From Saccostrea echinata (Eukaryota), in contig NW_026889750.1 of the NCBI RefSeq assembly GCF_033153115.1, positions 14,694,001-14,758,000 on the forward strand: DNA of 64,000 bases, in the 5' to 3' direction. The notes below the pieces were generated by a model that worked only from the letters and a program-made list of their open reading frames with translations, did not search any database and was not told the origin of the DNA. The position numbers were made by a program, and so were the translations under genes. Of the stretch, positions 23,931-24,911 are shown piece after piece. Positions within the stretch are counted from its first letter, which is position 1. Each line of letters opens with the position of its first letter.

Positions 23931-24911
23931 ATGGAGCAAAAACATCAAGACCTTATAAAAATGAACTACTCGACTCTGGTGAAGAAAATGAAGGCTTCTT
24001 CAGTTGTCAGACATCTGTATGACTCTAACATTATAACAGACGAGATGAAACAACAAATTGAGACAGAGAAGACCAGTTACGATCAAAACAGAAGACTTCT
24101 TAGTATCATTCTTCGGAGAGGACCAAAAGCATTCAGAAGCCTCCGAATAGCTCTGATGAAAGCCGGCCAAACAGATTTATCCAAGCTTCTCACAGACAGT
24201 GAAGATACTATGTCCGAGTATGAAAAGAAGTTAGCCATGGCACGATCTTTGGTTTTGAACTCGGTCGAAAAACAGTATGTTGAAAACAAACCAAAGAGTG
24301 ACCCTGTAGCACGGCAAATATCTCAAGACGTGCGATGTAGAATCAGTCTAGATGATTTCAACGCAGTTTTCCTCACAGCCGTGTCTTTCAAAGACAACAT
24401 CAATATTCACATACGCCACTTTACAGAGACCAACAATGGTCTATTTCCCACAAAGAAGGGAGTAACATTTCCGTTGTCTAGATGGTTGATGTTTGAATCC
24501 ATTCTTCCGGATATCCGAAATCACCTGCAAAACAGATCAGGCGAAGAAATGAAATGGCATATAGGAGGAGGAGTGTACGTCTCCATTACCCCGGGGTATA
24601 ATACGTTGGATATAAGGCACTATTGGAAGCCAGCTGACGCCCAGGAACCAGTTCCAACCAGGAAAGGTGTGACCCTGAACAGACACAAATTGACCAAATT
24701 ACTGTCAGCCGTCGAGGAAGTACGGGAATGTGTTCCCGAATTAAATGACACAGAGCTTTGTGCATTTAGCGAGTCCCATCAAAATCAGCTTGGGATGTTG
24801 AATTGCCCAGAGTGTACTCCATTCGGATATGAGCCTAAAGAAAATGTGTCCCTGGAATGTAATGTCGATGACTTACAAGACGCGCTGTCAATTGAAAGTG
24901 ACAATGAGTAA
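23931..24911 (+). CDS. CARD + tandem PC4 ssDNA-binding domains + C-terminal Zn-binding motif
   Basis: N-terminal QNRRLLSIILRRGPKAFRSLRIAL..GQTDL (CARD); IHIRHF..PTKKGVTF and LDIRHYW..PTRKGVTL (PC4 x2); C..HQNQ..CPEC. Confidence 0.85.
   Translation: MEQKHQDLIKMNYSTLVKKMKASSVVRHLYDSNIITDEMKQQIETEKTSYDQNRRLLSIILRRGPKAFRSLRIALMKAGQTDLSKLLTDSEDTMSEYEKKLAMARSLVLNSVEKQYVENKPKSDPVARQISQDVRCRISLDDFNAVFLTAVSFKDNINIHIRHFTETNNGLFPTKKGVTFPLSRWLMFESILPDIRNHLQNRSGEEMKWHIGGGVYVSITPGYNTLDIRHYWKPADAQEPVPTRKGVTLNRHKLTKLLSAVEEVRECVPELNDTELCAFSESHQNQLGMLNCPECTPFGYEPKENVSLECNVDDLQDALSIESDNE

Follow-up and report, generated by a model that had tools for sequence, protein, structure and literature searches.

Does a gene that joins a CARD to two PC4 repeats in an oyster genome belong to the immune repertoire of the host or to a mobile element, and what might its CARD do? 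The question is raised by an open reading frame (ORF) at positions 23931-24911 (forward strand) of the window, a 64,000-nucleotide (nt) stretch of Saccostrea echinata DNA (assembly GCF_033153115.1, contig NW_026889750.1, positions 14,694,001 to 14,758,000). The single frame runs uninterrupted from ATG to TAA and encodes 326 residues, which Pfam, AlphaFold and a fold search divide into a CARD, two PC4 repeats, a C/H/CxxC motif and an acidic tail. The gene is found here to be cargo of a Polinton (Maverick) element, and its product may bind single-stranded DNA (ssDNA) and present a decoy CARD there.

Pfam matches CARD (PF00619) to residues 7-89 (E 7e-14, 52 bits with a cut-off of 23.9) and PC4 to two stretches (E 7e-15). 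In the AlphaFold model, built on a 53-row alignment with a mean predicted local distance difference test score (pLDDT) of 79.5, a confident six-helix domain at residues 3-86 is followed by a further helix (96-107), a disordered linker (112-131), two beta-beta-beta-beta-alpha repeats (133-201 and 207-267) and an acidic tail that is again disordered (304-326). In fold searches with the predicted model, residues 1-93 match the Apaf-1 CARD (Z 17.5, root-mean-square deviation (rmsd) 1.1, 90 aligned) and residues 132-273 align as a unit with Pur-alpha repeats I-II (Z 10.3, rmsd 3.6, 127 aligned). Between the second repeat and the tail, C277, H283, C292 and C295, retained in 51-52 of the 53 aligned homologues, are putative zinc ligands, forming a candidate zinc knuckle (24759-24815, forward). 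The initial annotation of this locus, made from the letters alone, had read a six-helix CARD pattern, two tandem PC4 motifs and a C/H/CxxC tail, and all three were borne out.

The setting answers the first part of the question. The gene lies in a 21.5-kb Polinton, element B (23032-44502), bounded by terminal inverted repeats (TIRs) of 184 nt at 23032-23215 (forward) and 44319-44502 (reverse), which are 99% complementary and give the element the ends AGTAGT/ACTACT; an identical 6-mer at both flanks (23026-23031 and 44503-44508) forms the 6-bp target duplication. Element B looks intact and has the features by which a Polinton/Maverick is recognized, namely TIRs with a target duplication, protein-primed DNA polymerase B (PolB) together with an integrase, and capsid, protease and ATPase genes. 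The CARD-PC4 gene is its third ORF, between a GADD34-like ORF and the integrase. An origin of the 184-nt repeat by inversion within the surrounding Polinton, element A, was considered and rejected, as the repeat has its own target duplication.

A genome search with the protein, whose counts are lower bounds (125 matches listed), returned at least 43 near-full-length copies (residues ≤9 to ≥295 in one piece, 49-100% identity) and at least 53 matches that span the PC4-PC4-zinc part only (27-44% identity). In all 30 best copies a neighbouring Polinton gene is no more than 1.5 kb away; the integrase is directly downstream in 28, a GADD34-like ORF is upstream in 29 and at least one of the two is present in every copy, and the whole Polinton gene set was found in the same order in all three further copies taken over 40 kb. 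Twenty-five of the 30 copies are intact and five are broken. The Polinton setting in which the initial annotation placed the gene is thus upheld, the gene keeping a constant place between GADD34-like gene and integrase, and the alternative offered there of a sensor or defence protein, taken as one of the host, finds no support, all 30 inspected copies being Polinton cargo. Identical proteins are encoded at separate loci, which shows recent spread only. Most copies of these Polintons are concentrated on four contigs (C5, C6, C33 and C36 of G000, in our labels).

The CARD plus two PC4 architecture has probably been in print since 2018, as the host gene CgCARDCP-1. A 252-residue Crassostrea gigas protein deposited as 'caspase recruitment domain containing protein' (AXM05363.1, our P0173, a member of a 90% cluster) has a CARD and two PC4 repeats, is 59% identical to the Saccostrea protein over 258 columns (E 1e-110) and groups with seven Polinton copies of this genome (support 99). 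Its last residue corresponds to residue 255, and it lacks the last PC4 helix, the zinc motif and the tail, all of which are present in 326-residue members of its own 90% cluster. This is very probably the protein of Wang et al. 2018 (PMID 29751033), a paper whose title, as given in reference lists, names CgCARDCP-1, lipopolysaccharide (LPS) recognition and NF-kB activation. Judged from sequence, what was published as an oyster immune receptor is probably a Polinton gene in shortened form: it has the CARD and both PC4 repeats and nests among Polinton copies, but it is shorter and was described as a host LPS receptor. Its abstract is said to give a 759-bp ORF, a CARD with two PC4 domains, similarity to caspase-2 and an NF-kB effect of about 1.3-fold in human cells.

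Were the protein a domesticated host pattern-recognition receptor for LPS, as CgCARDCP-1 was presented, the 2018 title and the listing of CgCARDCP-1 as induced by LPS and Vibrio in a table of PMC9330033 would be accounted for. We consider this very improbable, and for this genome already largely refuted, given that every inspected copy sits among Polinton genes, the present one with fresh TIRs and target duplication, that broken copies occur, and that AXM05363.1 itself falls with Polinton copies; a basic nucleic-acid-binding surface could also bind anionic LPS non-specifically. Related proteins have received other names. The Ostrea homologue, 77% identical to CgCARDCP-1, was first named caspase-2 (PMC7836458), and a scallop PC4 paper cites the CgCARDCP-1 work as the oyster PC4 study; in the part of that paper available (PMC9223095), the many bivalve PC4 genes, some of them single-exon with two PC4 domains, are treated as a host expansion and the string 'transpos' is absent. 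No published link of a CARD-PC4-PC4 protein to Polintons was found in a search that did not extend to Repbase reports, journals behind a subscription or supplements on bioRxiv, and 'PC4' or 'CARD' in the relevant sense is missing from PMC11131425, 10.1101/2025.04.19.649669, 10.1101/2024.03.25.586562 and PMC11874512. The Polinton PC4 module has a label in databases and the fusion is probably in print under a host name, but no account that connects the two was found in this search; the reassignment to Polintons, of the published gene and of half the single-frame CARD matches in this genome, is well supported, and the mechanism discussed below is one that we infer.

The DNA-binding part can be compared with human PC4, which according to excerpts of PMC4350104 contacts ssDNA through R70, R86, R100 and K101 with F77 and W89 stacking, and loses binding when W89 or F77 is lost. 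Repeat a (residues 133-201; 24327-24533, forward) has F153, R162, K175 and K176 as equivalents of F77, R86 and R100/K101 and none of W89, and repeat b (residues about 207-268; 24549-24734, forward) has R229, W232, R244 and K245 as equivalents of R86, W89 and R100/K101. The F77 equivalent is clear in repeat a only, with Y223 nearby in repeat b. All of the 53 aligned homologues share R162, R229 and K175, 52 have W232, and 50 carry an aromatic residue at position 153. DNA binding is therefore likely, perhaps through one main face.

In the model the two repeats most likely fold as a single-chain pseudo-dimer, so that no second chain would be required for a PC4 dimer; on this point the dimeric PC4 of the initial annotation needs correcting. 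The Pur-alpha repeat pair, with which the tandem repeats align, is described in the excerpt of PMC7549692 as a single-chain form of the PC4-like fold. With PC4/Sub1 proteins (human PC4, MoSub1, the phage T5 PC4-like protein 4bg7) the repeats share the fold and the DIRxYW and P-x-[RK]KG motifs. In contrast to those homodimers of single-repeat chains, the Polinton protein carries tandem repeats in one chain whose aromatic sites differ, together with a CARD and a zinc motif, and lacks a Ser/Lys-rich regulatory N-terminus; it would work like a PC4 without being a canonical one.

For the origin of the CARD we turned to host CARDs. A genome search with PF00619, which reports single-frame hits and so undercounts CARDs split by introns, gave 111 matches, 55 of which coincide with element copies; 44 of the other 56 and three two-exon caspase prodomains made up a panel of 47 host CARDs. 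With a profile built from 13 element CARDs, the best scores go to two host caspase prodomains on C54 (65.2 and 65.0 bits) and the CARD-only protein L072 (64.6 bits), and no other exceeds 39.2 bits. One of the two caspases has QACRG and the caspase domain of the other was seen as downstream Pfam matches; the best PDB match of L072 is RAIDD (E 1e-9). Because the top three of 47 are caspase prodomains and a RAIDD-like CARD, the element CARD (residues 1-90; 23931-24200, forward) is of the initiator-caspase/RAIDD kind, and its sequence makes capture from a host initiator caspase or RAIDD-like adaptor likely. Among PDB matches Apaf-1 comes first among natural proteins for this CARD, and RAIDD comes first for that of a second oyster family described below; bivalve CARD caspases group with caspase-2 in the excerpt of PMC7836458. 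In a tree of 95 columns the 13 element CARDs group together (99/82), with no clear sister group. The host protein L072 (L057:4899-5174, G000 C29) is a 91-residue single-frame CARD-only protein with no Polinton gene within 5 kb. Complex prediction of residues 1-92 with L072 scored 0.00 and 0.00; the alignment was not used and the controls did not fold, and the result counts neither way.

The initial annotation had pointed to RIG-I-like receptor (RLR)-MAVS signalling as the target, and this part is not supported. The present CARD scores 56 bits with PF00619 and 38 bits with CARD_2 (PF16739), which we take to be the RIG-I/MAVS type, and the reverse holds for three host CARD_2-type matches; these three score 3.6-19.6 bits with the element CARD profile, as against about 65 for caspase/RAIDD-like CARDs, oyster MAVS itself not being among the CARDs compared.

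A CARD that engages a host CARD adaptor as an agonist and turns on NF-kB survival signalling has a precedent in herpesvirus E10, an NF-kB-activating CARD agonist. E10 of equine herpesvirus 2 (EHV-2) is, with a lymphocystis virus CARD, among the fold matches of the present CARD, and the available title of the CgCARDCP-1 paper has NF-kB activation for what is probably a member of this family. On the other hand, the effect was reportedly small and obtained in human cells with a protein that is probably truncated, and two host CARDs that we presume, from a motif, to be Bcl10-like (L071, L074) score 36 bits, compared with 65 for caspase prodomains; we therefore regard an agonist as unlikely.

The CARD is under purifying selection. 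The ratio of nonsynonymous to synonymous change (dN/dS), by pairwise Nei-Gojobori comparison of the 25 intact copies in pairs with a synonymous difference of 0.1-0.7 (pairs not independent), is about 0.12 for the CARD, 0.19 and 0.14 for PC4 repeats a and b, about 0.07 for the zinc part, the most constrained, and 0.27 and 0.30 for linker and tail. As these values are comparable, the CARD is held as tightly as the DNA-binding part, and 32 of its positions are at least 90% conserved among homologues. Many of the conserved positions lie outside the core, which would also suit a CARD that associates with itself and has no host target, giving cooperative ssDNA binding and a nucleoprotein filament for replication or packaging. 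Filaments are formed by many CARDs, including fold matches of this one, and the single-chain PC4 pair leaves no obvious oligomerisation surface. Such a role is nevertheless quite doubtful, since the module works without a CARD, most such proteins having none, and the GADD34-like and IAP (inhibitor of apoptosis) neighbours are host-interaction genes.

The reading that we prefer, with a probability of about 0.5, is that the protein is an ssDNA-binding accessory protein whose caspase-mimicking CARD acts as a decoy and blocks adaptor-driven caspase activation during element replication. The tandem PC4 pseudo-dimer would bind melted DNA or the strand that the protein-primed polymerase displaces, presumably like the CARD-less proteins of other Polintons. 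The CARD would mimic a caspase-2/9-like prodomain without a protease and, as a dominant negative, occupy the CARD of an activating adaptor of the RAIDD/PIDDosome or apoptosome type. Through fusion to a DNA-binding module the decoy would be at the site where a death signal for DNA damage would arise from replication intermediates, and the cell would be kept alive while the element replicates, the CARD doing the job of the IAP in sister families. In mammals the PIDDosome (PIDD1/RAIDD/caspase-2) responds to DNA damage (excerpts of PMC11502896 and PMC5461015), adintoviruses encode Bcl2 and IAP homologues (PMC8502044), and apoptosis rises on deletion of the ranavirus vCARD (PMC8524050, in part). 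The neighbours of the gene fit counter-defence, because a GADD34-like gene lies upstream and an IAP adjoins the CARD-less PC4 gene in 6 of 18 inspected loci of other families, with none found in four CARD-bearing B elements. Of the branch of the initial annotation that proposed an ssDNA-binding protein with a CARD decoy, the decoy thus agrees with the setting, the selection on the CARD and the kept DNA contacts, but its RLR-MAVS target finds no support.

Like the viral CARD proteins (ranavirus/iridovirus vCARD, equine herpesvirus E10), the Polinton protein has a protease-less CARD in a DNA-virus-like genome. ICEBERG and COP are CARD-only inhibitors encoded by hosts. In contrast to vCARD, E10, ICEBERG and COP, which have no DNA-binding module, the present CARD is caspase-prodomain/RAIDD-like and fused to PC4-PC4-zinc; it is not a CARD-only protein but may still work like one.

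Several observations weigh against the decoy. A third host caspase prodomain scores only about 26 bits with the element CARD profile, the identity of the element CARD to the nearest host CARDs is 26-38%, and the CARD tree names no donor. The aromatic equivalent of W89 is missing in repeat a, where the residue is variable, and one of the two DNA-binding faces may therefore be weak. Neither an IAP nor a CARD was seen within 5 kb in 12 of the 18 CARD-less loci, which makes the alternation of IAP and CARD loose. CgCARDCP-1 is said to be mostly cytoplasmic, and the available title of its paper has activation of NF-kB, not inhibition. No transcript of this copy was demonstrated in the RNA runs searched: none contained half of the sequence words of the gene, over 8.9 kb, three raw-read runs of poly(A) RNA yielded 48, 49 and 48 reads, most of them less than 90% alike and on both strands, with a depth below 0.7 over the gene, and in one contig set all 30 bins were covered, the pattern expected of DNA.

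A CARD array on DNA could, furthermore, as well activate a caspase by proximity. RIG-I-like sensors pair a nucleic-acid-binding module with an N-terminal CARD, and the present protein, with its flexible linker, parallels them; its CARDs might cluster on ssDNA and fire a caspase, serving virion release or the killing of cells infected by a competitor virus. Polinton-like viruses have been proposed as parasites of large DNA viruses (PMC11296320, in excerpt). An activator of this kind is decidedly improbable: the CARD resembles the caspase side, not the receptor, the GADD34-like neighbour suggests suppression of host responses, and the activator would be self-harming unless timed, because replication of the element itself makes the trigger. 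A broader idea, in which the ssDNA-binding protein of bivalve Polintons is a DNA-templated death-fold scaffold whose CARD array captures or fires the host caspase machinery, is speculative and rather improbable; if true, it would be a virus-encoded, ssDNA-gated CARD platform, and a studied family of oyster host receptors would be proviral cargo acting on cell death.

The initial annotation had implied that the architecture is rare, whereas our survey found the fusion across oyster and mussel sequences and the CARD-less module as the usual form in Polintons, of which CARD-less PC4-PC4-zinc is a common accessory gene. Among 18 of the 53 PC4-only matches that were inspected, Polinton core genes lie within 5 kb in 15, a GADD34-like neighbour alone in two and neither in one. 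When 1.84 billion representatives were searched with a profile, 1521 matched at E 1e-10; the zinc spacing is present in 128 of the best 150 of these, and a CARD-like stretch in 23-25. CARD and PC4 were both recognized by Pfam (E 0.001) in 11 of 52 proteins picked for long N-termini. Named homologues come from Saccostrea, Ostrea and Crassostrea, and named CARD fusions beyond oysters from three Mytilus species, with VDH97960.1 and XP_071139776.1 among the Mytilus genes; a Pinctada protein has a CARD fragment only. A scan of viral contigs gave one weak match and no CARD fusion. The best match in a viral structure library is MOSUB of a Branchiostoma lancelet adintovirus (E 2.4e-5, 188 columns; the second at E 0.02), a Polinton accessory protein that by this structural match has the same PC4-type module but, at about 200 residues, no room for a CARD. 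The name is a map label in Supplementary Fig. S2 of PMC8502044 and does not occur in the main text, as far as the available version goes, and no description of a function was found there.

A second oyster CARD-PC4-PC4 family (L031), which lacks the zinc motif, belongs to a Polinton whose PolB is of another type. Its sites, the L031 region (G000 C57:6082000-6102800) and the L046 region (C33), adjoin PolB genes of other types, which suggests gene exchange between Polinton groups. A PIF1-like fragment lies near L031, but a host or Helitron gene was rejected because the Polinton around the gene has TIRs, an integrase and a capsid of its own and the other-type PolB. The CARDs of both oyster families fall into a single clade (99/82), and the simplest reading is therefore that a CARD was captured once and then passed between element families. 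The PC4 tree, from which five CARD rows were left out for an incomplete PC4 pair, needs 12 label changes, and two proteins (P0258 and P0277), which fall elsewhere in it, may be exceptions; many independent captures were nevertheless rejected, because several 'no CARD' rows are fragments and the CARDs of both families are one clade.

CgCARDCP-1 and the Ostrea 'caspase-2' are thus likely reassigned from host immune genes to Polinton cargo, and because the genes are likely cargo, their induction by LPS, Vibrio or Bonamia may read out element activation. Polintons account for most of the tandem-PC4 genes of this genome and for 55 of its 111 single-frame CARD matches, so that the bivalve CARD and PC4 'family expansions', which had been used to argue immune and stress adaptation, are in part mobile-element content. 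The protein itself is small and expressible, and may serve for probing how animal Polintons handle apoptosis and how ssDNA positions or gates a death-fold domain.

Around the gene, a TATA-like box (23852-23858, forward) lies about 79 nt before the ATG, and such a motif occurs 40-110 nt upstream in 27 of 30 copies, in AT-rich DNA and with no shuffle control. An AATAAA polyadenylation-like signal follows the frame (24945-24950, forward), with a similar hexamer no more than 130 nt past the frame in 22 of the 30 copies, likewise without shuffle control. The upstream GADD34/PP1-binding-like ORF of element B (23518-23775, forward) has no Pfam match of its own but is 40% identical over 48 residues (E 4e-7) to the ORF at 8797-9294 (PF10488) of element A; both elements thus have GADD34/ICP34.5-like PP1-binding ORFs, which likely counter eIF2-alpha shut-off. 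Directly downstream is an rve integrase with a chromodomain (PF00665; 25098-26240, forward). It is followed on the same strand by the major capsid protein (27219-28535, a weak double-jelly-roll-like Pfam match below cut-off), an adenain-like cysteine protease (28532-28993, weak Pfam C48/C5/C57 matches) and an A32-like packaging ATPase (29086-29763, weak Pfam match), with 30% identity to their element A counterparts (E 1e-62, 6e-19 and 2e-31). PolB occupies two open frames on the reverse strand (30541-35243), both matching PF03175; it is split at the same place in four of four family-B copies examined (gap 223-264 nt), and the gap is likely an intron.

The rest of element B (35300-44300) is about 9 kb of AT-rich cargo, apparently spliced, in which exon-like units repeat in tandem and one segment, rich in Pro/Thr repeats, resembles a membrane protein. 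An equal-sized region with little DNA similarity is present in other copies (G000 C54 copy L061-L062; L031:1102-2810); this cargo evolves fast and possibly encodes a surface glycoprotein.

Element A, the outer Polinton holding B (7422-51712), has its own TIRs, 6-bp target duplication, PolB, integrase, IAP and GADD34-like gene, and no PC4 gene was found in it. Arrays of a ~434-bp repeat flank the nested pair (1.1-5.9 kb and 52.5-55.6 kb). Within Polintons there are intronless IAP genes of the BIR-RING type, at 46066-46692 of the window and at other loci (L032, L033, L034, L036, L039, L048; L162-L166). In the excerpt of PMC8917759 intronless oyster IAPs are attributed to retroposition; some of these may be Polinton cargo. 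Two ORFs of element A (12283-12909 and 13178-13651) have weak matches below cut-off (E 0.02 and 2e-4) to Viral_Rep (PF02407), which we take to be CRESS-virus Rep endonuclease-like. Further ORFs of element A encode a double CCHC zinc knuckle (7815-8483) and an Arg/Pro-rich RING protein (10255-11166), and the 3' part of the zinc-knuckle ORF recurs in the right TIR region (50996-51316).
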